A DNA stretch of 28,280 nt from Candidatus Hermodarchaeota archaeon (GCA_048885525.1 JBHLLP010000046.1:1-28280), one strand, 5' to 3'. Positions 6,965 through 25,914 are shown, counted from the first letter of the stretch. A program made the numbers and translations. Notes: a model not told the origin generated them from the letters alone.

Positions 6965-8899
6965 CTATCGAAATAAAACCCAATAAAATATCGGGAATAA
7001 GGAAAAAAGAATCGAAAATAATAGCATCCATTCTAATAATGGTGTTGGAAGAAAAAAATTCATTATAAGTGTTAATAATGGTATAATCCCTGTTAATCCT
7101 ATAATTCTTGGTATCTGTGATGCGTAATGAGATAACACTGTTCCAAACATAAATAATGCTAGAATATATCCTCCAAAAGCTATTATCGAAAATAGACTAT
7201 GTCCAATTCCAAAAGACCTATCAAGACTAAACACTCCTACAAAGATTATTCCTATACTTCCAGCAACTCCAGAAAGTAATGCAAATTTGGATATAAAATA
7301 TTTATTTTTGATTAGAGGTGGGCTAGAAGATTTCAATCGTCTTGATAAATAACAATAAAGAAACGTTGTTGTAATACCACCAATTATACATGCTATATCA
7401 AATAAAATAGGTATAGGATTCATCAATTGGGAACCAAGCTGACTTATGGTATGGGTAATAAGATCATATCCAAATGAACTAGCAAACCCAATACTCCCAA
7501 TTAGTAAACTTAGATATATTATAAGACCACTTATTAGGGTTGATTTTATGAATTTTGGGAAATTCCAAATATTTTCAAGCTTAGTTTTAAGGATTTGATA
7601 TGAAGAAAATCTCTGTAAAACTCTATTCGCTTCTTCAGGTAAAATTTTTAACTCGTTTCCTTTGTCAAATTCTAAAATCTTTAAAAGTTTACAGCCTTCA
7701 TCAATTAATTGAATCCTTTTATTTATTGAACCCTTGAACCAATTGAAGAGAATTTTATCTTCAAATACGTCTTCTTTTTTATTATAATCCCAACTTGGTA
7801 TATACCCTCTAGGTGATAATCCTGCTTCAAGAAACAATCTTTGATGCTCAGGTTTATATGCTGAAATGAAGACTTCACAATATCGAATTTTCATTTCATA
7901 TCCGTATTTAATAAATTCTTGAATAAACACAAATAACTCTTCAAGATTATTTACATGGTATTTTGTCTTCTCAAAATTTTGCACTTGAGGAGAATATAGG
8001 AATTCAAAATATGAATCGGTACCTTCAATTCTAAAACTAATTGTTTCATAACCAAACTTATCTTTTATAAACGATTTTGATAGTTTCCCTTTGATTTCAG
8101 TTATCTTAAAATTATCGAGAACCTCATCAGGATTTTGAAGTTGATAATCTCCCAAATGATATCTATCATCAGAATAAAGATAACATGTTTCAACTTGGGG
8201 AATTATTACTGGGATATGTGACGAGCGATATTTTTTTAATACCCGCTTATCGTATAATATTTGCATTATATCAGATTCAATTTTTCCAAAAAATATGTCT
8301 TTATTTGGATAAAACCCGATGGGTGCAATTCCGCAAACACACATTGAATACTGAGATTTTGCATGGGCAGTTCTATTTTCTACATACCAGGTATATATTT
8401 TGTCCTTAAACTTATGAATCATCCCGATCATAGAACCAATCATTGCTTTTGTGATATCAATAATTCCTTGATACTTCTTCTTAAGCATGAATCCTCGAAT
8501 GTATCCACGTTTATTCTCAAAATCTAAGACAAATGTAATACATCCAGCAATCTTGAAATAGGGATCTTGATAAATGATCCATTGTATTGTAGGGTCTTGT
8601 ATCATTTTTCGGACTTCATCAATATCTTCCATTTCTTTGTACGGGTATGTTCCGTTGTATAGTTCTTTATAGATTCCGACAAGATCTTCAGCATCTTCTG
8701 GTTTTGCTAATCGAAGGATTGGACTGACTTTATGTTTTTGTACTCTATCACAGAGTTGAAAATCAAGACACATCCCTCGTTTCATATCAGATTCAATTAT
8801 ATGTTTAAATGGTTTTATGAATTGATTGGTATCATTTGGAAACATCTCATTTAATGACACTGTTAAATTTTCGGAAGATCTAATTTTTTCAGATAACAT
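6965..8899 (-). CDS. GNAT-family acetyltransferase fused to a C-terminal DUF998-like membrane domain
   Basis: The GNAT part has LRLAKPEDAEDL..IYKE.Y and RGFMLKKKYQG. The last ~190 aa has about 5-6 TM with HTISQLGS, GIIFVGVFS and GHSLFS (DUF998 pattern). Confidence 0.75.
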   Translation of the reverse strand: MLSEKIRSSENLTVSLNEMFPNDTNQFIKPFKHIIESDMKRGMCLDFQLCDRVQKHKVSPILRLAKPEDAEDLVGIYKELYNGTYPYKEMEDIDEVRKMIQDPTIQWIIYQDPYFKIAGCITFVLDFENKRGYIRGFMLKKKYQGIIDITKAMIGSMIGMIHKFKDKIYTWYVENRTAHAKSQYSMCVCGIAPIGFYPNKDIFFGKIESDIMQILYDKRVLKKYRSSHIPVIIPQVETCYLYSDDRYHLGDYQLQNPDEVLDNFKITEIKGKLSKSFIKDKFGYETISFRIEGTDSYFEFLYSPQVQNFEKTKYHVNNLEELFVFIQEFIKYGYEMKIRYCEVFISAYKPEHQRLFLEAGLSPRGYIPSWDYNKKEDVFEDKILFNWFKGSINKRIQLIDEGCKLLKILEFDKGNELKILPEEANRVLQRFSSYQILKTKLENIWNFPKFIKSTLISGLIIYLSLLIGSIGFASSFGYDLITHTISQLGSQLMNPIPILFDIACIIGGITTTFLYCYLSRRLKSSSPPLIKNKYFISKFALLSGVAGSIGIIFVGVFSLDRSFGIGHSLFSIIAFGGYILALFMFGTVLSHYASQIPRIIGLTGIIPLLTLIMNFFLPTPLLEWMLLFSILFSLFPIFYWVLFR

Positions 8900-9047: not shown

Positions 9048-9404
9048 TTAGATAGTATTTTCCAATTTACTTTTTAATTTTGAATAAATAGCATTTATAC
9101 GCAACCCTACTTCTTCAAGAAGCTTACTTTTTTTATCTAATTCTAGTTTTTGATTATTATCAGGACTATCTGTGAATTCTTTTAAATCTTTTTTTGTTGT
9201 AATTTGTTTATGATAAAAGTGAAATAAATCAACAATTTTTTGAAGAGCTTCTGCCCTAAATTCTACAATTTTTCTACGCAGTTCTTTTGCTGACAGCGTA
9301 CCAAGACTCACATTATCAATTGCCCTTCTTAAAGCTGTAAGATTATCATTATCAAACATTATGTTTTCTACCATTTTATAGAGATTTTCTTTCTTTGCTA
9401 ACAT
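9048..9404 (-). CDS. Small helical hypothetical protein (~118 aa), last gene of the membrane operon
   Basis: The ORF track starts at 9419, but GAGGAG precedes the ATG at 9404, four nt after the upstream stop codon. Confidence 0.75.
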   Translation of the reverse strand: MLAKKENLYKMVENIMFDNDNLTALRRAIDNVSLGTLSAKELRRKIVEFRAEALQKIVDLFHFYHKQITTKKDLKEFTDSPDNNQKLELDKKSKLLEEVGLRINAIYSKLKSKLENTI

Positions 9405-9408
9405 GCTT

Positions 9409-12400
9409 TTACTCCTCAAAAATATAATTTTGAATTTTTATAAAGAAACTATAAATATATTCATATAGATCTTCCGCAAGTTCCTCTAAATTTTGGTTCT
9501 CCAAGTTGATTAAATCATACTTTTCAATATAACTTTCAAATTCTTCTTTGGAAAAAGGAAATTCTTCTGATTTTGCTAAGTTAATTATAAATTTTTCTAC
9601 TTCATTTATAGATAAAATTTGATTTACATTATAGAATTGTTTATAGACATTCAGAAGGTATTTTTTAATTAGCCCATGTCCAATTTTAATAGCTTTTTCG
9701 TAGTCATTATGGTTGATGAACCTAAAGATCTTGAAGATATCATAATTGAAGTCACTAAATTCGCGTGCAAATGCATCTTTTAAATTTTCCTTTTGAATAA
9801 TATATTTTCGAGGTTTTGGTCGAAATATATTCGTCAAATCTTCTGATTTTTGGATCTCTTTTTCGATCACATCAACCTGATTCTCAGAATCTGCCCTACT
9901 TTTTGCTTCAAAATAATCCTCTAATGCTCGTTGATATTGATCACCAACAGAATATGAAGTTCTTAATGCTTCTGAACCACTTGCTCGTTTTGGATGATTT
10001 TCCACTAAGTAGCCATGTTTCACTAATAAATTGAATATGTCATCTCTGATTTTATTGATGTGTTCTTTTTTATTTGTCTTTTGTGAAATTCTTGGATATA
10101 AGATTTCTTTTAGATGTTTTTTGATTTTTTGTTTATATAGATTACCTATTTGATCAAAATTTTGAACTTCACTAAGAAAACTTATTATTTCATTTCGATA
10201 GGGAAAATACCTTCCTAAATCTTTTTCGAATATAGTCTTTTTAGCCTGTTCTAAGATTCTTCGTTCGCTCTGTGTTAAATTGTACCCTTGATCTTGCATA
10301 AACTCCACAATTTCTCCGTATGGGAGGATCTTTCTACTTTTTATATTGTTCCAATCTACTACTACAGGGAATGGTTGATATATATCATCTCTTCGCACCA
10401 AAATTTCGTTATTTTTCATATTCATTAAATAATCAATTTGATATGTGTCATTTCTTTTGGAGGTATAATATCCTGTACCATATAATTCTTGGAGATTCAT
10501 TTGGGCTTTCAATGTAGCAATATCGCGTTTATCTGTTGCTCTAAATGAAATAATATTATTGAAATAATTGAACAAATGAGAATGGAGATATCTTATTTGA
10601 TTTGCCGAAAAAACCAAACCAAACTCGTGGTGAATAAGAGGATCTAAGAAAGTATTAATCTTACCATAATTCATTTTCCAGTCTAAAAAGTTGGCATTGA
10701 AAAAGATATCAACATTTGGGATAAAAATGATTTTCTTATGAAACTCATCTCTATGTTTGATATAATGTATAATCTTTGCAATAATCAGAAATGTAGAGAA
10801 TGTTTTTTTATCAAGATCTCTTAAACCAGACAGATCAATAATCACCGTTTTATCTGTTTTTACAAAATCATTGGCATGAATTCTATCCTTACCTGAGATG
10901 TTCTGAAAAAATGAAAGATCTTGATGAGTAAAATCAGAAAATACTGCTAACAATGAATCATTAATCGGATTTTTTTGCCAATCATTTAAAGTCTGCATAT
11001 CCAACTCAATTGATTTAAGATCCATGTCGGGATTTTTTTTAATCATATTTCGAAGCATGTCAATGATCCTTTGGTCTTTTTGGAACGCCATTCCGAATGC
11101 GTCAAACATGTATTCAAGATATTCGGCATTATCTTCTTCATAAGGAATATCAGATATGAGAGGGTCAATAGTAAATGCACTTCCTAACTTAAAGTAGAGA
11201 ATCCTATTTATCAATTGGGAGTTTTTGAAATAATCTAATAAAATTGACCATAACCCATTGAAATCAAATATTAAGCATGGAACACCAACTTTTATCAACT
11301 CTGCAACTATTTTCATAGCTACTAATTCACGATGTATAGGCATCCCATTTACAATCAATAAACTCTTAATTTGTTCTTCCGTAAATCCTACAGGTACTTC
11401 ACTTTCAAGTACTTCTGTATTAACAGTATGGCCAATTATAATAAAATTCTGTAGATATAGTGGTGTATTGAATTCAGCAGCAATTTTGGTAATAACTCCT
11501 TTTTTAAGAAGATCTACAACTGTAGTAAGAGGTGCTAGATTAATCCCTTGCACCATGAGTTCGTATAATTGAGTGCCATTTAACCGGAAATGGTTATTTT
11601 TTAATATTGAAAATAGGTACCCAGATAATAGTTTTTGGGATCTTAAATCCTCGATCCTATAATTTTGAAAATGTAAATTAAAAGCATCCTTTAGTGATTC
11701 GATTTTATAAGTTAGATCTTCTTCAAGTTCGTTAAAATTTTCGCGTTTTATAGTAGTAATGAATTTATAGGAATTAACTGACATAGTTAATATGCTATAC
11801 CACATACCTAATTGATAACCTAACCATTCTTCAGCGTCAGCATCGTTTTTAATTTCTTTCCAAAGTAATTTTTGTTGGGTTTCTTCATGAACATAGTTTA
11901 AACCGTGCTTATAAAACTCATAATATCCAATTGGTTTATTTCTTAAAGTATAACTAAATGAGAGTTTATAATTGTTTAAACTTTCAAAAAATTTCTCTGC
12001 AAGGCAAAATGGACTTTTTAAAATATACTTAAGATTTACCATCTTCAACCCAAGTAAAAGGTGATTATTGATTTGAAGAAATAAACTAAAGGGAAATTCT
12101 CGCAATTTATAAAAATGGATATTTTTAAAAGGATCTACTAACACACAATTTTCTGTATGTAATAATTTGCTTTTCGTAATTTGAAAGAACACAGCACGCC
12201 ACCAAATCATTAAAAAACCAATTGAAATTAAACAATTAATGCAGATAACATATATCATATTAATTGAAATGGAAAAAAGGATGTAGTCGAAATAGACTAT
12301 TATTACTATAATGAATAGGGCTTTTCTAAGAATACTAAAACTATTACCATTCAATAATTTCTTTTTATTTACTAAACCAATCGATGTTGTTACTTCTTCT

Positions 12401-12528
12401 TTTATGAAAAAAGTCCTTAAAGCATTTATTAAAGCGGTATCTGATAGTAATATAATTTTGAAATGATGGAAATTTGCCACAAAATTACTTTTTAAAGTAT
12501 TAGTATATTTTTTAATATAATATCTCAT
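9409..12528 (-). CDS. Membrane-anchored HerA/VirB4-like protein with degenerate Walker motifs; 3' part of a probably frameshifted ~1272-aa gene (13228-9409)
   Basis: IIIGHTVN...VPVGF...LLIVNGMPIHRE...GVPCLIFDFNG, VIIDLSGL, IIFIPNVD and GLVFSANQ...NIISFRATD follow the HerA/VirB4 motif order. GKS/T and DEAH are absent. There are two TM helices near the N-terminus. Confidence 0.8.
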   Translation of the reverse strand: MRYYIKKYTNTLKSNFVANFHHFKIILLSDTALINALRTFFIKEEVTTSIGLVNKKKLLNGNSFSILRKALFIIVIIVYFDYILFSISINMIYVICINCLISIGFLMIWWRAVFFQITKSKLLHTENCVLVDPFKNIHFYKLREFPFSLFLQINNHLLLGLKMVNLKYILKSPFCLAEKFFESLNNYKLSFSYTLRNKPIGYYEFYKHGLNYVHEETQQKLLWKEIKNDADAEEWLGYQLGMWYSILTMSVNSYKFITTIKRENFNELEEDLTYKIESLKDAFNLHFQNYRIEDLRSQKLLSGYLFSILKNNHFRLNGTQLYELMVQGINLAPLTTVVDLLKKGVITKIAAEFNTPLYLQNFIIIGHTVNTEVLESEVPVGFTEEQIKSLLIVNGMPIHRELVAMKIVAELIKVGVPCLIFDFNGLWSILLDYFKNSQLINRILYFKLGSAFTIDPLISDIPYEEDNAEYLEYMFDAFGMAFQKDQRIIDMLRNMIKKNPDMDLKSIELDMQTLNDWQKNPINDSLLAVFSDFTHQDLSFFQNISGKDRIHANDFVKTDKTVIIDLSGLRDLDKKTFSTFLIIAKIIHYIKHRDEFHKKIIFIPNVDIFFNANFLDWKMNYGKINTFLDPLIHHEFGLVFSANQIRYLHSHLFNYFNNIISFRATDKRDIATLKAQMNLQELYGTGYYTSKRNDTYQIDYLMNMKNNEILVRRDDIYQPFPVVVDWNNIKSRKILPYGEIVEFMQDQGYNLTQSERRILEQAKKTIFEKDLGRYFPYRNEIISFLSEVQNFDQIGNLYKQKIKKHLKEILYPRISQKTNKKEHINKIRDDIFNLLVKHGYLVENHPKRASGSEALRTSYSVGDQYQRALEDYFEAKSRADSENQVDVIEKEIQKSEDLTNIFRPKPRKYIIQKENLKDAFAREFSDFNYDIFKIFRFINHNDYEKAIKIGHGLIKKYLLNVYKQFYNVNQILSINEVEKFIINLAKSEEFPFSKEEFESYIEKYDLINLENQNLEELAEDLYEYIYSFFIKIQNYIFEE

Positions 12529-13228
12529 ACGTTCTAGTTTTTTTTTCAGTAAGAATTCCTTTGCAATGATAAAATATAGAAAAATAAATTGATGTAGTAA
12601 AAGATTCGATAGATCTCAACGAAGAATATCGTGTACTTTCTTTATCGAAAACATTTATTATAGGTTTTTGGATGACTTGATATGAAAAGGGAATTCTAAT
12701 TCTTTTGGAACTTAATGCTTTTATAAACTGTTTTATTGTAGGATGAATATTTTGAGGTATAACCTTTACTTCAAAAATTCGAAGAACTAAATGGGTAAGA
12801 TCATTTCGATCAGTACAATATAATGTAGAATATTCGTTTCTATCATACCAAAATACTAAATGTTCAAATGGATTAAATATAGTCTTATTTGCGAACGTAA
12901 ATGAAAATAAATTCCTCAATAAAAAGAATTGATCATGGAAGACAACAATAAATATGCATAATAAGAAAATCCCAATCACAGTTGATATCAGAGGATTATG
13001 ATTTATAATATAAGATGAAAGTATCACAGAAAATGTTAACACTGAAAGAAATATTGTTTTTACAATGGTTAGAACATTATTGATATCTTTAAATGAAGGA
13101 TTCACATCCCATATGTCAAAATACTTATTTTTTTGTCCATCTTCCTCTTCAGTTTTTTCCACTTTCTTTAGTTTGTTTTTTCTTTGAGAAATGCTATGTT
13201 CATCTGCACGTATATAGGTTTTTACCAT
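12512..13228 (-). CDS. 2-TM membrane protein; probably the 5' part of the frameshifted HerA/VirB4-like gene
   Basis: Removing one base from the T9 run at 12538-12546 gives ...GILTEKKLERMRYYIKK..., joining this ORF to 9409-12528. It is also similar to a second repeat in the downstream ORF. Confidence 0.8.
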   Translation of the reverse strand: MVKTYIRADEHSISQRKNKLKKVEKTEEEDGQKNKYFDIWDVNPSFKDINNVLTIVKTIFLSVLTFSVILSSYIINHNPLISTVIGIFLLCIFIVVFHDQFFLLRNLFSFTFANKTIFNPFEHLVFWYDRNEYSTLYCTDRNDLTHLVLRIFEVKVIPQNIHPTIKQFIKALSSKRIRIPFSYQVIQKPIINVFDKESTRYSSLRSIESFTTSIYFSIFYHCKGILTEKKTRTYEILY

Positions 13229-13229
13229 T

Positions 13230-14093
13230 TTAGATACACTCTTTACGAAATAGTTTAATATAAATAAAAATTAAGATGGCACTCGTACCACAAAAAACTA
13301 GTGACCAGGTATTTATACTCCCCAACTTGGCAGGAAAATAACTAATCTCAATTGATATTATCAATCCAAGAGAAATAGTTAGAATTATTAATCCAAATAA
13401 GAAATACTTATAAATTTCTTTAATAGAATTTTGATATATTAGATTTTTTTTAAGAGGTCCTTGAATGCTAATTCCTCTTTTGCCTTTTGAATCAATTGAA
13501 TTTCTTATAGAATGCAAAGCGATTGATTTCTCAAGCTTTTTAGCATTGAATTCATTATCAAGATCTTTTTGAACACTCTGCTCTAGATTTTTGATTTTTT
13601 GGATAATTAAAGGTTTTAATGTGCTTACATCATTTTGTTTATGTTTAATACCAGGGGAAAGAAAAGAAAATAACTCTAAATAGGATGATCCCATAAAATT
13701 TGTATTATTTATAGTTTTATGGAGATTCGGAACTTCTAATTTGCATAGGTCAAAATAAATGTTAAACATCGCTTTAATATACTGAATAGGAATTTCGCCT
13801 TTATTACGTAGAAATAAAGCCTCAGAATCTCTCACAATATCAATCTGCTCATCTTTAAAGATATGAATCTGTAAATTCTTATCAAAAATCTGATTGATTG
13901 ATGTCATATATTGGAATAAAGTCTCCCCTGAGCTTCTTTTACGGGGCTTCACGCCAAGATTTATCCCAATTTCATCTAATCGATTACTTGTTAAAATAAA
14001 ACTAACTACAGCTAACTTCTTGTAATTTTTAGTTTGTTTACATATCTGAATTAAGTTTTTCAATTTCATATCATCAATATAATTCTTATCCAT
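13230..14093 (-). CDS. Hypothetical protein with an N-terminal helical (possibly HEPN-like) domain and 2 C-terminal TM helices
   Basis: 287 aa with a GGAG RBS in the end of the upstream gene. Hydrophobic segments are FLFGLIILTISLGLIISI and WSLVFCGTSAILIFIYI. Confidence 0.8.
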   Translation of the reverse strand: MDKNYIDDMKLKNLIQICKQTKNYKKLAVVSFILTSNRLDEIGINLGVKPRKRSSGETLFQYMTSINQIFDKNLQIHIFKDEQIDIVRDSEALFLRNKGEIPIQYIKAMFNIYFDLCKLEVPNLHKTINNTNFMGSSYLELFSFLSPGIKHKQNDVSTLKPLIIQKIKNLEQSVQKDLDNEFNAKKLEKSIALHSIRNSIDSKGKRGISIQGPLKKNLIYQNSIKEIYKYFLFGLIILTISLGLIISIEISYFPAKLGSINTWSLVFCGTSAILIFIYIKLFRKECI

Positions 14094-14096
14094 AGA

Positions 14097-14834
14097 TTAG
14101 TCTCCACCCTCAATAAATGAATTTATTATATTTTCTAGTTCAATTTCTTGTGAATTTTGACTATTCGTCTTATATTTGAGCTCTTCTTGGGCAATTAATT
14201 TATCTAAATCTAACGGTTCTTGAATATGATTAAGAACTTTTTCCACCATAGTTTCAGGTGTTTTTTCCACATTATCGAAGGTATTTAATGTACGGAAGTA
14301 GAAAATAGTAAAAGGAAAAATTAGCATAAAGGCAATCAAATGGAAAATATAACCGATATCAAAATGATATAGGTAAATAAATTCTGTATTATAATCTACG
14401 ATTTGTAAGAAAGGAAAATAAAGTCGTTGAGGGGTGAGGTACATGATGGGAAATGCTATGATATAAAACAAATTTAATATAAGGGATGTGATAAGTAAAT
14501 AACTATAAGGACGGTAATTTGCAATAGATTTGACCCTTTCTACATCTTTAAATAACATAATATAACCTGAAAGTATAAGAGAACCTAAAAAAATAATATT
14601 AAGAGGAAGTGGGACAGACAGATTTTCGGGACGTAGAGCTTCATTTAGCTGAGAACTGGGGATTAATAAAGTAGACCATTCTTTAAATATATTATATTTC
14701 CATGAAACAATAAGCTCATAATCTAGAGTATATATTTGAAAAGAATACCATTCTACAAATAAAGAAAGAAATAATAAAATGAGACCACATAAAAAACTTA
14801 TTTTAAATATTTTTATGGTACTAATGGCTATCAA
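14097..14834 (-). CDS. 4-TM membrane protein with an acidic C-terminal tail
   Basis: 245 aa with four hydrophobic segments. The TTG start overlaps the upstream TGA (TTGA at 14831-14834). Confidence 0.8.
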   Translation of the reverse strand: MIAISTIKIFKISFLCGLILLFLSLFVEWYSFQIYTLDYELIVSWKYNIFKEWSTLLIPSSQLNEALRPENLSVPLPLNIIFLGSLILSGYIMLFKDVERVKSIANYRPYSYLLITSLILNLFYIIAFPIMYLTPQRLYFPFLQIVDYNTEFIYLYHFDIGYIFHLIAFMLIFPFTIFYFRTLNTFDNVEKTPETMVEKVLNHIQEPLDLDKLIAQEELKYKTNSQNSQEIELENIINSFIEGGD

Positions 14835-17179
14835 TCCTCAAGAAATGAACTGTATTTGTCTATTAAATCATTTTTAACTTTGAGTTCGTGAGCATCGGGC
14901 TCTGACATATCCTCTTCAAATAATTTAACTTGCTCAACTTTTTTTTTCATTACTTTGTCCATGTGATATAAACGCGCATTATCCTTCTCGATTTTCTTAA
15001 GAATTGGAGAATCAGGATTCTTTCCCAAAATTTCATACCCGAATTGTTCCATAAGCTTTGGAGGAAACCTTTCATTAATTAATACTAAACTCGTTTCATC
15101 TAAGCCTAAATCTCTTTGATAATATGGAGTAGCAAATAGTTGTTTGATATGACCTTTATGTTTATTATATTTAATATAAATATACCCTATAATTATCGTA
15201 TATAAACTAATAATTCCATATCCTAAATTAATGACTAATTTTAATAATGAAAATCCTTGAAATAAGACTATTAAAAGTAATACAAACCCATAAACAATAA
15301 ATGGGGTTGAAGCTATTCTTATCTCTATCATGAATCTTTTCGCTACTTCGCTATTTAACTCGATTGCACTTTTCTTCTCTGAGTATGTCTCAATAAGAAA
15401 GTATTTCTGATCGATATAATGTAAAAAATCGGATAATTTAGAAATATCGACAACATGAATATTTGAATGTCTTTGGTATGCAAATGGAACAAGTTTTTCC
15501 GTAAAACCTACATTGTTTTTACTTACTATGAGAGGCTCGATTAACACTTCATATTGTAATGGTCCTGAGCGAAGAAATAAGGTTTTATGAGTAATCGTTT
15601 TTTCTGGATAAATTTCAATGTGAAGATATTGCATTATATATTCTAACAATTCTCCACTACTTGCTAAATCATTAATAATAGTTACCTCTGCTTTCTGAAG
15701 AGCTTTTATGTATGATTGAGGGATCTTTTTGGTGAGAAAACTCCTTTCATTGTCATTTATAGGTTTGTAATCAATTGAGTCGGCTGAAACCATAAGTGTT
15801 CCTTCCAGTTTACTTATAATAATTGGGACTATACATATTAGGTCAAGAAATTCATGGATATGTATAGTCTTTAATGCTAGTGCATCAATTCCAGCAAATA
15901 CCGATCGAAGTTTTTGAGATTTCTCGATAATAGAGAAATCAGATGCCTTAACTTTTCTATATAATTTCTCTATAGTAATAAAATTTTCTTTATATTTGTT
16001 GGCTTCCCTTGACTTTTTAGTGTCTTCTACTTTTCGAGGTTCATCTAAAGTTCCTAAAAGCTTCTCCCCATCCTCATTAGGGAGAATAATTTCAGATTCA
16101 TCCTCTTCAAGCATTTCTTCATAATCTATATTCGATTTGTCATAATTATCTTGTTCAGTAACTCCAAGTTCCAGATTTTTGATCTCTTTTTGTGGTATGC
16201 TATGACTGCCTGTTGTTCGTGGATATTTAAATTTATCTTCAAACCATGGTTCAGATTCGTGTTCTTCTCTTACTTCATGCTTAATATTAATGTCCGTTTC
16301 AATATTAGGATTAAAGATGAAATCTCCATTTACATACTCTATCGTAATTCTTCTATTTTTAATCCATTCTTTACCATAGATTTCATACCAATCACGATAT
16401 TTTTCAGAATGTACAATAATATACCCATTTTTTTCTTTTGCGTATTGAAGTACAAATTTGTCAGCTTCAACACCACTTTGTATTTGATGTATAATCCTAT
16501 TGTCCTTCAGCTCTTCCAATTTTCTTTTATTATCGATTTGATGCTTTAAAGTATAATCGCAAAATATAGTTATGTTTTCAAAACCTTTAGATTTTAATAA
16601 TTCTCTCAATTCAATTAAATAACTAATCTTAGCAAGTTCTCCTTGTTTTCTATCACCCCCCATCCATGCAACATTTGAACCATCAATTATGATATCAGTT
16701 GATGGACTAAGGACGTATTTATAATCTGAAATATTTTTTTTGGGTTTGATTTTCCATTGCGGATGTTTTTGTTCTGAAATTATTGGTAAAGATGATCTTC
16801 TCTTTATAATTCTGTTTGAATTATTTTTTTCCTCCAAAAGAGGGAAATCATTTAATTTTTTTAATCGTACATATTGATTTGCTGTTTCAATGATTTTTTG
16901 TGCTGTTATTTGACCAATACCATTAATTTGTGTCAATTTTGCAACTGTAGATTGTGATAACTCTTTAGGTGAAAAAATTCCTTCTTTTTCTAAAATTTCA
17001 GCAAGATGAGGTCCAACGCCTTTCAAAACTGTTAAATCTTCCTTTACAATACTAGGGGTTAGATTCATCGCTTCTTGGTCTAAATGAGAGAAATATGCGT
17101 CAGATGTCTCTTCCCAATCATGCTCTTTTTCTACTCTACTCGACTTTTTTTTCAATAGATTTTGTTGGGTATCTGTCAT
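14831..17179 (-). CDS. Multidomain membrane protein: HhH pair + Zc3h12a/Regnase-like NYN (PIN) nuclease + acidic linker + uncharacterised domain + 2 TM
   Basis: DLTVLKGVGP...LTQINGIGQITAQKI is the HhH pair. IIIDGSNVAW...EADKFVLQYA...IIVHSEKYRDW...RRITI is the NYN/PIN domain. Two TM helices lie near residues 625-670. Confidence 0.85.
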   Translation of the reverse strand: MTDTQQNLLKKKSSRVEKEHDWEETSDAYFSHLDQEAMNLTPSIVKEDLTVLKGVGPHLAEILEKEGIFSPKELSQSTVAKLTQINGIGQITAQKIIETANQYVRLKKLNDFPLLEEKNNSNRIIKRRSSLPIISEQKHPQWKIKPKKNISDYKYVLSPSTDIIIDGSNVAWMGGDRKQGELAKISYLIELRELLKSKGFENITIFCDYTLKHQIDNKRKLEELKDNRIIHQIQSGVEADKFVLQYAKEKNGYIIVHSEKYRDWYEIYGKEWIKNRRITIEYVNGDFIFNPNIETDINIKHEVREEHESEPWFEDKFKYPRTTGSHSIPQKEIKNLELGVTEQDNYDKSNIDYEEMLEEDESEIILPNEDGEKLLGTLDEPRKVEDTKKSREANKYKENFITIEKLYRKVKASDFSIIEKSQKLRSVFAGIDALALKTIHIHEFLDLICIVPIIISKLEGTLMVSADSIDYKPINDNERSFLTKKIPQSYIKALQKAEVTIINDLASSGELLEYIMQYLHIEIYPEKTITHKTLFLRSGPLQYEVLIEPLIVSKNNVGFTEKLVPFAYQRHSNIHVVDISKLSDFLHYIDQKYFLIETYSEKKSAIELNSEVAKRFMIEIRIASTPFIVYGFVLLLIVLFQGFSLLKLVINLGYGIISLYTIIIGYIYIKYNKHKGHIKQLFATPYYQRDLGLDETSLVLINERFPPKLMEQFGYEILGKNPDSPILKKIEKDNARLYHMDKVMKKKVEQVKLFEEDMSEPDAHELKVKNDLIDKYSSFLED

Positions 17180-17325: not shown

Positions 17326-17446
17326 GACGAGCACCCGTCTGTACCCTGGATTTTTGTCTTTTGGTAGTGTATTAAGTACACTCTGATTTCACCCTCCTCC
17401 TTTATATTTTTGAAGCATAATTGCTTCTACAGAATGGGTGCGAGTC
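17326..17446. other. Structured intergenic element (candidate ncRNA or small inverted-repeat element)
   Basis: Arms 17326-17343 and 17428-17446 pair and enclose two small hairpins (17366-17382 and 17412-17427). Confidence 0.5.
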
Positions 17447-17983: not shown

Positions 17984-20509
17984 ATGACAATAACCGATTT
18001 TTCTGACGATATTGGGGATGATGAAATAGATACTGATTCTAATCGTGAAATTTTCAAATTTATTACAGATAAACGAATTTTACGAGTTCTTTTTGAAAGT
18101 AAAATATTCCTATTACGGGATATCCAAAAAGAAGCAATTAAAAAAGGTTTATTCTTCAGTAAATCATTTTTAGTATGTGCACCTTCGGGCAGTGGAAAAA
18201 CATTAATTGGGGAAGTTTGTGCTATAAATAATGTATTTCAGAAATTTGGGAAGTCAGTATATTTGGTACCATATAAAGCTCTTGCTTCAGAGAAGTACTT
18301 TCATTTTAAAAAGAGTTATGAACGATTTGGAGTGAATGTTGAGCTTTCGATAGGTGATTATGACGTTGATGATTCAAAACTACAAAAAGCAGATATTATA
18401 GTTACTACATATGAGAAAATGGATTCTATTTTAAGAAATTTTTATGATAAAGAATGGATTTGTGAAATTTCTACCATTATTATTGATGAGATTCATATAA
18501 TTGGTGAAAGCGATCGGGGATCAAGACTAGAATCACTAATAGTTAGATTAAATGAATTCCTCTGCAAACCACAATTAATCTCATTATCAGCAACCATTGC
18601 AAATCCCGAATTTTTTAATTCATGGTTATCCTCACTTGGAAATATAACCACGTTAATCAAGTCTGATGATCGTCCTGTACCACTCCACTATAAAATTGAA
18701 ATAACCCAAAATAAAGATTCTACAATTAAACGACTTGTAAAAGCGACTTTAGAAAAGGATGGACAAATTCTTATATTTCTAAATAAAAGAAGAGGCGCAC
18801 AACAATCCGCAGAGAATGTTAAAAATTTGGTTAAGAAATTTTTGAAAGATAATGAAATAAATGTATGTAAAGCTTTAGAAAGACGATTAACATCTATAAA
18901 AGGTGGGCATAAGGATTTAAGGAAAATAATTAAATATGGAGTAGCCTTCCATCATGCGGGACTACTTCCTAAAGAACGTAAAATCATTGAAGATAATTTT
19001 AGGAAGCGGATAATTAAACTAATATGCTGCACAACAACTCTTTCCGCTGGGATCAATGTTCCTGCACGTTTAGTCATTCTAAAAGACTTTAAGAAGTATG
19101 TAACCTCGGGACATAAAATAAAGAATTTTTCTGGATATCATGAGAATGGGGACGGGTTTGCATATTTTAAGCCATTTTCTGCAAATGAAGTATTTCAGAT
19201 CTTAGGAAGAGCTGGAAGACCAGGTCTGGATTCAATAGGATATGGAGTAATATTAGTGAAGGATATTGAAGAGAAAATGTGGGTTGAGGATCACTTTTTT
19301 GAAAATACATCTCTTCATACAAATCTAAAACCACGCTATAATGACCTTTATTCCGGGTTAAATAAGATTAATACACTGAAAGAACAAGTCCTTTTACGAA
19401 TCTATGAAGAAAAAAAGATTACAATTGAAAAATTAAAACAATTTTTCGAAAGAACATATTTTTGGTATGGTATTAAATATAAAATGAAAGAACAAAAGAT
19501 TCCGATTGAACAGTTATTAATGATAAAAGAGATTACCCCGATTAATATATTGAAACTTCACTCTAATGCTCAAAAAGTTAAATCTTTAAAGGAACATAAT
19601 TTTCAAATCAAATTATCTAAATTTAATGATTCAAACATTTCAGGATATATAAAGACGCCATATGGTGTCTATTATTCTCAATTTGATATTTTAACTGGAA
19701 TTCAGTGTAGTTGTGGGTTTGAGAATGGTATCTCCGATAATTTTGCGAATGAAGAATTTAGTTTCGAGTTCTGTGATCATGTATCAAGTTTCTTAATTTA
19801 CCTTATTCAACTTCCGGACGTTAATTTCCAGAAATATGTAGAAACTATCATTCCAAAATCTGTGAAGAACCAATATATCTTAAATTATTTGTTTGAGAAA
19901 GGCTTAATTATTAAAACTGATGATGGTAAAATTAAATGTTCTCAGTTTGGTAAACTAATAATTCGATTATATTTATATCCAGTTTCTGGTGTAATGATAC
20001 GTTATAAGCTTGAAAATGTTGAGATAAAAAGTTTCCAAGATTTAATTAAAGAAGCATATGAGATTTTAAAGGCTGAATTTCGTGTAAAGGATTATAAAAT
20101 GCTCCAACCGATTATTGAATGGGCTGATGAAGAACCCATTGACCAAATTTTAGAAAAATATAACATTATGGCAGGTGATTTATTCACAGTAAGGGATAAT
20201 TTAAAACGGATTATCATTTTTATAGGAATTATTGCAAATAATCTGAGTACGCATGGAATAGATTTACAAGATAAGTTGGTCAAAGTAGCTGAGATGGCAG
20301 AAACCCTCCAAATACGCTTACAGCATGGAATTCGAGAAGAGTTATTTGATTTAGTATTGAGGTTGAATGATGTTGCTCGTGTGAGAGCACGGATTTTATA
20401 TAATGCCGGTTATCATACCGCTACACAAGTAAAAAAAGAAAACCCTTATATTCTTAATCAAAAAACGGGGTTAGGAATAAATCTAATTAAGAAAATAATT
20501 AAAGGATGA
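17984..20509 (+). CDS. hel308: Hel308/Hjm (Ski2-like) SF2 helicase with an inserted SWIM zinc finger and C-terminal HhH
   Basis: Motifs APSGSGKT, PYKALASEK, DEIH, LSATIAN, HHAGL, TTTLSAGINVPA and QILGRAGRPG. The C-terminus has RARILYNAGY. AGGTGA RBS at ~17972. Confidence 0.88.
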   Translation: MTITDFSDDIGDDEIDTDSNREIFKFITDKRILRVLFESKIFLLRDIQKEAIKKGLFFSKSFLVCAPSGSGKTLIGEVCAINNVFQKFGKSVYLVPYKALASEKYFHFKKSYERFGVNVELSIGDYDVDDSKLQKADIIVTTYEKMDSILRNFYDKEWICEISTIIIDEIHIIGESDRGSRLESLIVRLNEFLCKPQLISLSATIANPEFFNSWLSSLGNITTLIKSDDRPVPLHYKIEITQNKDSTIKRLVKATLEKDGQILIFLNKRRGAQQSAENVKNLVKKFLKDNEINVCKALERRLTSIKGGHKDLRKIIKYGVAFHHAGLLPKERKIIEDNFRKRIIKLICCTTTLSAGINVPARLVILKDFKKYVTSGHKIKNFSGYHENGDGFAYFKPFSANEVFQILGRAGRPGLDSIGYGVILVKDIEEKMWVEDHFFENTSLHTNLKPRYNDLYSGLNKINTLKEQVLLRIYEEKKITIEKLKQFFERTYFWYGIKYKMKEQKIPIEQLLMIKEITPINILKLHSNAQKVKSLKEHNFQIKLSKFNDSNISGYIKTPYGVYYSQFDILTGIQCSCGFENGISDNFANEEFSFEFCDHVSSFLIYLIQLPDVNFQKYVETIIPKSVKNQYILNYLFEKGLIIKTDDGKIKCSQFGKLIIRLYLYPVSGVMIRYKLENVEIKSFQDLIKEAYEILKAEFRVKDYKMLQPIIEWADEEPIDQILEKYNIMAGDLFTVRDNLKRIIIFIGIIANNLSTHGIDLQDKLVKVAEMAETLQIRLQHGIREELFDLVLRLNDVARVRARILYNAGYHTATQVKKENPYILNQKTGLGINLIKKIIKG

Positions 20510-23769: not shown

Positions 23770-25914
23770 CTATTTAGGATTTTCTAAGATATTTTTTATG
23801 ATAAAATATAGTTCTTCCTCATTATCAATAGCAATTCCTTGAAATTCATACTGTTTCGAGAATTCTTGAATTTTTCTTTTCATGACACGTTTCTCCTCCT
23901 CAATATTTTCTTGAAATTCAATAAAATCAAATATGATGATTAAAAGTGAACAAATTTGCTTAAAATCCTTGATGTCTGAAAGTAATGTATTAGAATTAAG
24001 TTCTCTAGGGTTATAAATCTGGATAAGCACTTTATTATGTATTACAATATGAAGATCTGATTCCTCAACTTCAAAAAGAAAACCATCGTGTTGTAATTTA
24101 TTTCGTATTCCAAATTTCATTGGAAATGATTTACTAATCTTCAAGGGGCTGGTTAATTTAACGGGATAATCTCCATCAATAAAAGATAGGAGTTTTGATT
24201 GAATATTTCTTTTTATTATCTTTCGAGGGTGATATTCTGGAGATTTTATGGTGCACTGATCTATTTTTGGAACTAAATTTTCCTCTTTAACCGTATCTTG
24301 AAATGAAAGTTTTTGGTACGAATCTTTTAGTTGATGAGGTTTCTTAAGATTAATATTCATACGTTTTAATTTATTCAAGGCAATTTGTAGATAAATTTCA
24401 TCTCGAGTCTTCTTACTATATAAAATAACTACCTTTCCCTCTCGATGGCGTGCTGTTCTTCCTTTACGTTGAATTAATCGAATTTCAGAAGCTACCACAT
24501 CATAAAATATAACTAAATCACATTCAGCAATATCTAGTCCTTCTTCACCAACGTTAGTGGAAACCAGAACATTATATTCTCCATTTTTAAACTGTTCTAA
24601 AATCTCTATTTGTCGATTTTGGGATAACCCTTTATCATCCTGAGATTTAGTTGCCTGTCCCACAAATCTTACGGGTTTTATTCCATTAATCTTTTTAAGA
24701 TTATGGGCAATATTTTTTACAGAATTCCTTAATTTTACGAATACTAAGATCCGTGAAGAAGGATTATTAGATAATTCGTCTAAGATAATTTTTATTAATA
24801 TATTATATTTTGGATGAACTAAACTTTCAGGAGAGATTTCCGCATTCTTTTTAAGTTCCAAATAAATACGATTTAAACGTCCATCAGAAGCTAGAATTCT
24901 TGTTGCTTTTGAACTAGATTTCTTTTTCGCATCTTTATGAAGTTTGTTAAAATAATCTAATAAGACATTTAACCCTTGTTGCTCAACGAGTTCGAGCATA
25001 TGATATAAAATTAACCCTTGGGCGTTGATAGATAAGGCACTATACACACCAGTCTTTTCTCCATTATTATTTAAGCGGTTCACCAATTCAGCATTTACTT
25101 TCAATAGATCTTTTCGAATTACCTTAGTATGTAATTGTTCTCCTTTTGGTTCGAGGAAGTTAAGTTGTGATAGATAATGTAATCGTTCTTCTAAAACAGC
25201 GGTAATTAATTGGTATATATCTTCCATTAAACTTGTCATATCGACTCCAATTTTGTAAATATCCATCGGTTTTAAGTATGTCTTCACATCTTCATCCTTG
25301 CGTGTACGGATATGGATATTATCTAAAGGGATGTATAAATTTTCGCATAAAGTGTTAATTTTACTTTTTGAAGATCCAGGTGAAGCTGTTAGTCCAAGAA
25401 TAATTCCATCAGGGCTTTGTTCTACAAATTCGTCTGCAATCATAGTGTATGCATATTCACCAGATGCATGATGAGCCTCATCAAATATAATTAATGCAGT
25501 ATTGTGTAAAGTATATTTTCTGTTTACTAAGTCGTTTCGCAGCGTTTGGGGTGTATAAAATAATATTTGCGTTTCAGCAAAAATACCGACTCTATCTTCT
25601 GGAAGGGTTTTTCCAGTTAGAATTGCACATTTTTCTTTTGAAATCTTCAAGAATTTCAAGAATGTCTCATAATGTTGATTAATTAAAGGTCGTGTTGGAG
25701 CAAGTACAATAATTTTGCTATTAGGAGGGAATTTTTCTAATATTTTACTTGCTACAAGCACAGCAATTATTGTTTTTCCAAGCCCTGTCGGTAATACTAC
25801 TAGAGAATTTTTATCGACACATTCATTTGCTATTTTAACTTGATATTCTCTTATTTGAAGTTCGTATGAATTTAATGTTGAGATTCTATTAGTTTCTTCT
25901 TCTATTTCACCCAT
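23770..25914 (-). CDS. hef: Hef/FANCM/Mph1-family helicase with a degenerate C-terminal ERCC4-like domain
   Basis: Motifs REYQ, LPTGLGKT, APTRPL, DEAHHA, GLTASPG, RFVGQA, GEEGLDI and IQRKGRTAR. Confidence 0.9.
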   Translation of the reverse strand: MGEIEEETNRISTLNSYELQIREYQVKIANECVDKNSLVVLPTGLGKTIIAVLVASKILEKFPPNSKIIVLAPTRPLINQHYETFLKFLKISKEKCAILTGKTLPEDRVGIFAETQILFYTPQTLRNDLVNRKYTLHNTALIIFDEAHHASGEYAYTMIADEFVEQSPDGIILGLTASPGSSKSKINTLCENLYIPLDNIHIRTRKDEDVKTYLKPMDIYKIGVDMTSLMEDIYQLITAVLEERLHYLSQLNFLEPKGEQLHTKVIRKDLLKVNAELVNRLNNNGEKTGVYSALSINAQGLILYHMLELVEQQGLNVLLDYFNKLHKDAKKKSSSKATRILASDGRLNRIYLELKKNAEISPESLVHPKYNILIKIILDELSNNPSSRILVFVKLRNSVKNIAHNLKKINGIKPVRFVGQATKSQDDKGLSQNRQIEILEQFKNGEYNVLVSTNVGEEGLDIAECDLVIFYDVVASEIRLIQRKGRTARHREGKVVILYSKKTRDEIYLQIALNKLKRMNINLKKPHQLKDSYQKLSFQDTVKEENLVPKIDQCTIKSPEYHPRKIIKRNIQSKLLSFIDGDYPVKLTSPLKISKSFPMKFGIRNKLQHDGFLFEVEESDLHIVIHNKVLIQIYNPRELNSNTLLSDIKDFKQICSLLIIIFDFIEFQENIEEEKRVMKRKIQEFSKQYEFQGIAIDNEEELYFIIKNILENPK

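Follow-up and report, generated by a model that had tools for sequence, protein, structure and literature searches.

What kind of system is encoded by a short run of genes in an Asgard archaeon whose central product has the fold of a secretion-type ATPase, is anchored in the membrane and has lost the motifs for ATP hydrolysis? The genes lie at positions 9048 to 17179 of a 28,280-nucleotide (nt) stretch of DNA from Candidatus Hermodarchaeota archaeon (GCA_048885525.1 JBHLLP010000046.1:1-28280), which was analyzed at its full length and is referred to here as the window. A first-pass annotation made from the sequence alone had proposed an undescribed membrane machine for nucleic-acid import/export or surveillance, composed of an HhH-NYN nuclease, a protein with four transmembrane helices, a HEPN-like protein, a HerA/VirB4-like pseudo-ATPase and a small helical protein (here named A to E). 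The best explanation reached here, to which a probability of about one half was assigned, is that the genes encode a complex anchored in the membrane at its cytoplasmic face, in which protein D would be a scaffold that works together with the helicase Hel308 on DNA for recombination or repair.

Six minus-strand open reading frames (ORFs) were listed in the region, two of which belong to one gene, giving the five genes A–E (table 1). The two ORFs of gene D occupy different frames and overlap by 17 nt at nine consecutive A. The read-through protein P0001 (1272 amino acids, aa) is identical to the window letter for letter on both sides of this run and reads TEKKLERMRYY across the junction, as a run of eight A would give, and the relatives of D are all encoded by one ORF (about 1260–1300 aa). 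Because P0001 reads through and the relatives have a single ORF, the two ORFs were treated as one gene, and the split would represent either an assembly (homopolymer) error or a real slippery-run frameshift in this copy. Once the two ORFs are joined, the five co-oriented genes of the first-pass annotation are real and their order is kept in relatives. The spacing claimed for them (overlaps or gaps of at most 4 nt) holds for A/B (overlap of 4 nt), B/C (gap of 3 nt), and C/D (gap of 1 nt), and at the D/E junction it depends on the start codon of E (overlap of 11 nt with TTG 9419, gap of 4 nt with ATG 9404). According to hydropathy and two AlphaFold models, A has a transmembrane hairpin, B four to five transmembrane helices, C a hairpin at its C-terminus, D two hairpins, and E no transmembrane segment, in agreement with the earlier claim that four of the five proteins are membrane-anchored. 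Since all anchors are hairpins or sit behind long N-terminal domains that have no signal peptide, every large soluble domain should face the cytoplasm.

The N-terminal half of D is a tandem duplication of a module that consists of a transmembrane hairpin and an alpha/beta domain (hhalign of module 1 against module 2, probability 99.4%, E 1e-21, 222 columns), and the two modules also give weak cross-matches in the homolog search. The 1039-aa part of the protein was modeled from an alignment of 58 sequences (predicted local distance difference test score, pLDDT, 83.7) and contains an ATPase-like domain followed by a winged-helix-like element and a helical region. A winged helix in the relatives of D is suggested by a sub-threshold Pfam wHTH match and by a Baldrarchaeia homolog that its submitters labeled wHTH. 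By structure comparison, residues 349–752 adopt the VirB4/HerA/TrwB fold, with matches to VirB4 4ag5 (25.2, 332 residues, 4.2), DndH-C 7es4 (25.0, 326 residues, 4.2), Sulfolobus HerA 4d2i (24.1, 319 residues, 4.9), TrwB (about 22, about 345 residues, about 4.4), and FtsK (about 14, about 225 residues, 3.9). A Foldseek search with the model returned full-length TrwK/VirB4 as the top match (6e-11, about 700 columns). At the sequence level, the family profile of D retrieved HerA chains in the PDB (1.5e-4) with IIDLS, the Walker B strand, the sensor and an Arg motif aligned. D has the HerA ATPase fold and hexamer-type motifs. In the ESM atlas a CedB-labeled neighbor was found at 0.89, and CedB-type clusters are among the nearest named neighbors. 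The single sequence of D retrieved nothing useful from the PDB and no family at E ≤ 0.1 from Pfam, NCBIfam, or PADLOC (so no CagE_TrbE_VirB, AAA_10, or DUF87), and PF12846 had no match anywhere in this genome. An exhaustive phmmer search of 1.8 billion representatives found only 195 clusters, and the homolog source names seen were all of Asgard type.

The ATPase motifs of this domain are eroded. None of the 58 members of the D family and none of 13 distant Asgard relatives has GK[ST] at the Walker A position, which reads NGxxxxRE in the Lokiarchaeia family and mostly GGxxxER in the 13 distant relatives. Most D-like proteins thus carry Arg in place of the Walker A Lys, and the distant forms mostly have an acidic residue before this Arg (ER) in place of Gly. 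An acidic Walker B is retained in many D-like forms outside the Lokiarchaeia. Two active ATPases in the same alignments lack a family-specific inserted loop (G.YS..R...Q); in D this loop reads GxGYYSxxRNxxYQ and contains the invariant R692 and Q697, and most of the 13 distant relatives have it too. Fold comparison and the eroded Walker A and B motifs together bear out the earlier description of D as a membrane-anchored HerA/VirB4-like pseudo-ATPase, and because both motifs are lost D is more readily seen as a scaffold than as a motor.

Judged by the source names of its homologs, the organism is an Asgard archaeon of the Lokiarchaeia type. A total of 16 loci from the same family of Lokiarchaeia were fetched, eight of the same genus and eight from six further genera. 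The A-B-C-D-E order is present in all eight loci of the genus, with Hel308 divergent from A in seven, and in seven of the eight loci from the other genera, again with Hel308 divergent in seven of eight; in the eighth locus D was not called and a D-sized gap is present. Retention of the order in no fewer than eight genera from one Lokiarchaeia family answers the question of synteny that the first-pass annotation had left to be checked. More broadly, a search with B of the window identified this gene in 69 of 101 other family genomes (10 out of 12 genera); the 19 genomes from the order's three remaining families gave no match to this query. A D profile found full-length D in 54 of 68 family genomes. 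In 19 genomes checked (nine genera), B and D are separated by 0.9–1.0 kb, the size of C. One genome assigned to another family (G312) has the complete operon. The long ORFs are intact at 30–65% identity in dozens of genomes from at least eight genera, and the operon is mostly single copy with a stable chromosomal position across genera, which is a misfit with a mobile island. The homologs in databases are all named "hypothetical" or "helix-hairpin-helix domain-containing".

Some family genomes carry extra paralogs of D. In G012 one full-length paralog (contig C76, L017:1077-6875) precedes a 631-aa protein of the DUF87 (HerA-type) family whose Walker A motif is GxxGxGKT, and another (contig C59, L016) has a TPR protein with a Cdc48-N fragment on one side and a DUF285 surface protein on the other. 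Two genera (g12 and g14, loci L057 and L060) have about 1.8–1.9 kb of extra sequence between A and B, which implies that the operon tolerates an inserted gene at this junction.

The neighborhood of D gives an indication of function. Hel308 adjoins the operon in 14 of the 16 fetched family loci, and the Hel308 of the window is the ortholog of the cluster-linked Hel308 described below; neither this genome nor a complete one from its genus has a second strong Hel308. A search with the D profile identified distant relatives across the phylum, 27 loci of which were fetched; their source names include Thorarchaeota, Baldrarchaeia, Freyarchaeia, and Helarchaeota, and an earlier fetch included Promethearchaeum syntrophicum MK-D1 (DSAG12_02162). 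These D-like proteins have 760–800 aa or are split into a module gene (about 140–360 aa) and an ATPase-like gene (about 475–535 aa). A 4-nt overlap joins the D-like gene to Hel308 in eight loci from two families (seven Thorarchaeia loci from five genera, and family f30). The genes of these loci begin with the RadA paralog, two small genes and XPD, continue with a transmembrane protein of about 200 aa, D-like and Hel308, and are followed by a second transmembrane protein (about 500 aa), a KaiC-like ATPase and then a polytopic protein. The about-200-aa protein gives a weak match to module 1 of D (hhalign probability 25%, E 7.5e-4, 163 columns). Overall, Hel308 lies within 10 kb of a D-like gene in 15 of 25 loci outside the Lokiarchaeia (eight families), and RadA paralogs or XPD flank others; the RadA of these clusters is a paralog and not the best Rad51-family gene of its genome. 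Judged from gene order and overlap, eight families together with translational coupling put the linkage of D-like genes to Hel308 well beyond chance. The proposed connection to Hel308 and recombination, now extended to XPD and a RadA paralog across Asgard classes, is therefore much stronger than the sequence alone had shown. The hef gene (23770–25914), to whose proximity the first-pass annotation also appealed, lies 6.6 kb from the operon, and its linkage was seen in only one other locus (L042).

The clusters in other Asgard classes contain further genes. The Thorarchaeia operon (L040:2352-17831 in G194, and six similar loci) has about 14 genes, most without a Pfam match, which include the RadA paralog, XPD, a module protein, the D-like gene, Hel308, a protein with two to three transmembrane helices, the KaiC-like ATPase, a protein with five to seven transmembrane helices, a weakly Rad51-like protein and several unknowns. 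In clusters of the Freyarchaeia type (L026, L043, and L050 from Freyarchaeia, and L030), the split D-like genes follow a small protein with three to four transmembrane helices and a large membrane protein (870–1016 aa) with an M28 peptidase-like domain; all three Freyarchaeia loci, but not L030, have a RadA paralog immediately upstream. The genome of the window itself (G000) carries on contig C72 (L053:5093-10450) a RadA paralog of 413 aa with an extra C-terminal HhH, near a protein with six transmembrane helices, a protein with two, and a KaiC-like ATPase (GESGTGKT). In its gene content this group resembles the other half of the Thorarchaeia and Baldrarchaeia clusters that hold D-like and Hel308.

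From the N-terminus, protein A consists of a RadA-type (HhH)2 domain, an NYN insert, an acidic variable linker, a conserved alpha/beta domain, a transmembrane hairpin and a helical tail with KYSSFLED. Pfam identifies HHH_5 (E 4e-12) and RNase_Zc3h12a (E 2e-17; 64 bits against PF11977, with a cut-off of 23), the N-terminal domain of RadA/Rad51 is the nearest profile match of the HhH domain (E 2e-10), and the first NYN motif reads IIIDGSNVAW (IDGSNVA-type). Both domains of the HhH-NYN nuclease proposed earlier are thus present, and the NYN domain is not part of the conserved identity of A. It is missing from all eight A orthologs of the same genus, it sits inside the variable acidic linker in this genome, and only 5 of 68 A-family proteins carry it, at one constant place, leaving 63 without a nuclease. 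In a quick maximum-likelihood tree, three of the five NYN-bearing proteins have an NYN-less sister (97–100% support) and the label needs five changes. An NYN domain is also fused to the C-terminus of E in G012 (L018:12065-12937, Pfam E 2e-10) and, by position only, likely in G080 and G108. On this distribution the NYN domain appears as an optional accessory that was joined to two subunits (A and E), which argues that the complex meets nucleic acid. The C-terminal module of A (residues 400–782) was modeled with a pLDDT of 87.7 and had no significant fold match in the PDB (best Foldseek E 0.24), and both VIA-align lists hold generic helical-hairpin matches only. Its conserved acidic end (KYSSFLED, 14834–14860), in which FLE is invariant in nine orthologs, looks like a short docking motif.

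Protein B has an acidic C-terminal tail and no match in Pfam or NCBIfam, and its only PADLOC hit (PDC-M46A, E 0.006, 14 bits) is at chance level. Protein C combines a helical soluble domain of about 225 aa with its C-terminal hairpin, and E is soluble and predicted to be helical; neither has a match in Pfam, NCBIfam, or PADLOC. The designation of C as HEPN-like found no support. There is no invariant Arg or His among the 36 invariant columns of nine C orthologs, leaving the HEPN Rx4-6H motif unsupported, no PDB profile matched, the ESM atlas returned no usable feature match for C, and its structure rows all have a template-modeling score (TM-score) below 0.5, including an Abi_C row at 0.32. 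A T4SS-pilin row in the same atlas was likewise rejected, as it spans the transmembrane hairpin alone at a TM-score below 0.5.

Taken as a mechanism, the preferred explanation would place D at the hub of the complex, held in the membrane by two transmembrane hairpins per chain and probably assembled into a ring by analogy with the VirB4/HerA fold. Being presumably unable to hydrolyze ATP canonically, D would act as a scaffold to which A, B, and C add further hairpin or polytopic membrane subunits and E a small helical adaptor. A would present its RadA-type (HhH)2 domain on a long acidic tether, together with the NYN nuclease in this genome, and energy and DNA unwinding would be supplied in trans by the neighboring Hel308, to which other Asgard classes would add XPD and the RadA paralog. 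Such a complex would handle DNA at the membrane for recombination or repair and, in the most specific form of the explanation, would hand over transferred or imported DNA to the recombination machinery.

Several observations weigh against this explanation. The library scans detected no model of a pilin, VirB6, VirB8, coupling protein, or relaxase and no extracellular component; the Pfam families of VirB2, VirB6, VirB8, VirD4, and relaxases are absent from A, B, C, E and the scanned flanks, although divergent archaeal versions could escape these models. Trans-membrane transport is unsupported in view of the undetected extracellular component, pilin, VirB6, and relaxase, and the originally proposed import/export or surveillance function stays hypothetical, the large soluble domains all being predicted on one side. 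Searches of the Thorarchaeia, Baldrarchaeia, Freyarchaeia, and MK-D1 loci with profiles of A, B, C, and E retrieved no homologs (only the complete Lokiarchaeia operon of G312 matched), and hhalign comparisons of ten Thorarchaeia and Freyarchaeia neighbor families with A, B, C, and E were negative, so that by these searches the Lokiarchaeia operon and the clusters of the other classes have only D-like and Hel308 in common. The fetched D-like homolog of MK-D1 (one of two near-identical copies) has no Hel308 within about 3–9 kb, and the divergent 594–598-aa neighbors of MK-D1-type D homologs, with two transmembrane helices, show no detectable relation to A. In the Lokiarchaeia, Hel308 is divergent from the operon and not co-transcribed. 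Finally, the related genomes are not independent, and the counts given above overstate the support.

The alternative that survives best is a true trans-membrane DNA transfer machine analogous to Ced, type IV secretion systems (T4SS) or competence, in which B, the hairpins and other membrane proteins would form a channel and the dead VirB4-like ring its cytoplasmic vestibule, with Hel308 pulling DNA like ComFA. It is a more specific version of the preferred explanation and is considered possible, if on the unlikely side. VirB4 is the best structural match of D, whose module of transmembrane hairpin and N-terminal domain may resemble VirB3-VirB4, A has an HhH domain as does ComEA, and in other Asgard classes the RadA paralog, XPD, and Hel308 are co-operonic in clusters that include polytopic proteins with five to seven transmembrane helices and large M28-type membrane proteins. 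Set against this are the large soluble domains, all predicted on one side that is taken as cytoplasmic, the undetected pilin, VirB6, VirB8, coupling-protein, and relaxase families, and a VirB4-like subunit that lacks ATPase motifs, whereas all characterized T4SS and Ced systems depend on an active subunit of this kind.

The operon might instead encode a membrane complex that has nothing to do with DNA and serves, for instance, protein export, envelope biogenesis or the shaping of membranes, with Hel308 as a mere syntenic neighbor. This would suit a set in which four out of five products are membrane proteins whose fold or function is unknown, given that VirB4-type ATPases also serve protein secretion, that hairpin anchors can shape membranes, and that M28 peptidase-like membrane proteins occur in the clusters of the Freyarchaeia type. 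The conserved (HhH)2 domain in A and the winged-helix-like element in the model of D speak against it, and neither the 4-nt overlap of D-like and Hel308 (in eight loci of two families) nor the presence of the RadA paralog and XPD in the operon is easily accounted for without DNA, making this alternative rather unlikely. An anti-virus defense system with a HerA-like scaffold and nuclease effectors, in the manner of Sir2-HerA or DUF4297-HerA, is improbable. The top PDB sequence-profile match of D is the HerA of defense systems, the NYN domain is gained and lost on A and E like a defense effector domain, and D paralogs are found in variable contexts. These features have to be set against the lack of any PADLOC model match save the chance-level hit of B (E 0.006), the syntenic, mostly single-copy operon that is fixed in position across genera, unlike defense islands, the 63 of 68 A proteins without a nuclease, the ATPase activity of defense HerA proteins, and the linkage to Hel308, XPD, and RadA, which points to housekeeping DNA metabolism. 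The least probable alternative, a decaying remnant of an integrated conjugative element without present function, would account for the VirB4-like fold with dead motifs, the frameshift of D in this assembly and the D paralogs that adjoin active DUF87 ATPases, but the long ORFs are conserved as described, the motif that replaces Walker A and the inserted loop are themselves conserved, which implies selection and not decay, and a read-through D (P0001) with identical flanks exists.

The flanks of the operon add a few observations. The TATA-like box that had been noted ahead of gene A is present (TTTATAAA), yet taken alone it has poor support in DNA of 29% G+C; its 28-nt spacing to the ATG would imply a leaderless or very short-leader transcript. 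Gene E is followed by T-runs and then by a new TATA-like box ahead of the next gene, which encodes a 644-aa protein with a DUF998 membrane domain (6965–8899, minus strand). Synteny of this gene extends to all eight genus loci long enough to include it and to two from another genus, and it may be a sixth operon-associated gene. The intergenic region between A and Hel308 contains a G+C-rich segment with inverted repeats (17326–17446). Scans of the whole window with Rfam (at the gathering score) and for tRNA genes gave no match.

Table 1. Genes, protein parts and sequence elements of the operon and the adjoining Hel308 gene, with positions in the window.
Feature	Position	Strand	Remarks
Gene A	14831..17179	-	782 aa
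(HhH)2 DNA-binding domain of A	16880..17041	-	Residues 47-100; common to all orthologs
NYN (Zc3h12a-like) nuclease domain of A	16310..16696	-	Residues 162-290; sporadic insert
C-terminal module of A	14834..15982	-	Residues 400-782; alpha/beta domain, transmembrane hairpin (about 15131-15367), helical tail
Gene B	14097..14834	-	245 aa
Gene C	13230..14093	-	287 aa
Gene D	9409..13228	-	About 1272 aa read through; here two ORFs
D ORF 1	12512-13228	-	238 aa
D ORF 2	9409-12528	-	1039 aa
A9 homopolymer shifting the frame of D	12538..12546	-	Read-through protein P0001 corresponds to 8 A
D module 1 (transmembrane hairpin and alpha/beta)	about 12530-13100	-	Homologous to module 2
D module 2 (transmembrane hairpin and alpha/beta)	11485..12363	-	Residues about 56-348 of the 1039-aa ORF
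D VirB4/HerA-fold domain	10273..11484	-	Residues 349-752 of the 1039-aa ORF
D Walker A position, NGMPIHRE	11326..11349	-	No GK[ST]
D Walker B position, IIFIPNVD	10708..10731	-	No acidic pair at strand end
Gene E	9048..9419	-	123 aa from TTG 9419, or 118 aa from ATG 9404
TATA-like box TTTATAAA	17204..17211	-	Center 28 nt before the ATG of gene A at 17179; read from sequence
Hel308 helicase	17984..20509	+	Divergent from A; Pfam DEAD, Helicase_C, Helicase_dom4_arc

The preferred explanation of a membrane-anchored scaffold can be extended into a bolder, still unlikely one, in which a dead VirB4-like ring would dock Hel308, XPD, and the RadA paralog throughout the Asgard archaea and feed DNA from the membrane into recombination, as a membrane-docked machine for DNA exchange and recombination. 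Hel308, XPD, and RadA are core recombination and repair proteins common to archaea and eukaryotes, and we know of no membrane-bound partners of any of them. If the extended reading were true, an analogue of Ced and competence would exist in the lineage ancestral to eukaryotes, with a bearing on the origin of sex-like DNA exchange. The D family would define a new, Asgard-specific module of archaeal DNA metabolism and would be a new example of a secretion-type ATPase turned scaffold. The operon offers a handle on whether Asgard archaea exchange or import DNA; Promethearchaeum syntrophicum MK-D1 is a cultured strain, and cultures of Lokiarchaeia exist.

A comparison with known systems defines the position of the operon. 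In bacterial competence, ComEA and ComFA act with DprA and RecA, so that a membrane HhH DNA binder, an SF2 helicase-type motor and a recombinase are brought together at the membrane; homology to this system is limited to the HhH domain (NCBIfam comEA, E 0.038), A is predicted to have its HhH domain in the cytoplasm, and no ComEC-like channel was identified. By fold, one of the closest systems is VirB3-VirB4 of T4SS (TrwM/TrwK of R388, 7o42 and 8rtd; Thermoanaerobacter VirB4, 4ag5), whose VirB4-type RecA-like C-terminal fold D shares. D differs in that it lacks Walker A (GxxGxGK[ST]) and Walker B (hhhhDE), has no match to the Pfam models VirB4, AAA_10, or DUF87, carries the hairpin-plus-domain module in duplicate and has about 290 additional aa at its C-terminus, of winged-helix and helical structure. 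Its partners also differ, being A, B, C, E, and Hel308, with no VirB2, VirB6, VirB8, VirD4, or relaxase detected. In contrast to the HerA proteins of HerA-NurA, Sir2-HerA, and DUF4297-HerA, D is membrane-anchored, carries the family-specific loop and is, from its motifs, predicted to be catalytically dead, and Pfam and PADLOC detected no NurA, Sir2, or DUF4297 partner family in the operon. With FtsK/SpoIIIE it shares the order of its parts, namely four transmembrane helices at the N-terminus, then a RecA-like domain belonging to the FtsK-HerA superfamily, then an element of winged-helix type at the C-terminus.

The Ced system (CedA, A1, A2, B, D, and E) is likewise a chromosomal archaeal membrane system built on a VirB4-like protein and tied to recombinational repair. 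Crenarchaeal Ced uses CedB and CedD, VirB4-like paralogs that split the N-terminal domain (PMC11868833). For the operon described here, no sequence similarity to Ced subunits and no named family match were found with general libraries that lack Ced profiles, and no pilin was detected; it differs further in a VirB4-like protein that is inactive by its motifs, in its Asgard lineage and in its coupling to Hel308, XPD, and a RadA paralog. No system model of Pfam, PADLOC, or NCBIfam matched the operon and no description of the five-gene set was found in the literature, in keeping with the earlier statement that it corresponds to no recognized gene set. VirB3-VirB4 and HerA by fold, and Ced and FtsK by analogy, are the closest known systems, and as far as sequence and structure comparison can tell each of them fails on catalytic motifs, sequence models or partner genes. 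What the present analysis adds is the frameshift in D, the optional nature of the NYN domain, the rejection of HEPN for C and the Asgard-wide link of D-like proteins to Hel308, XPD, and a RadA paralog.

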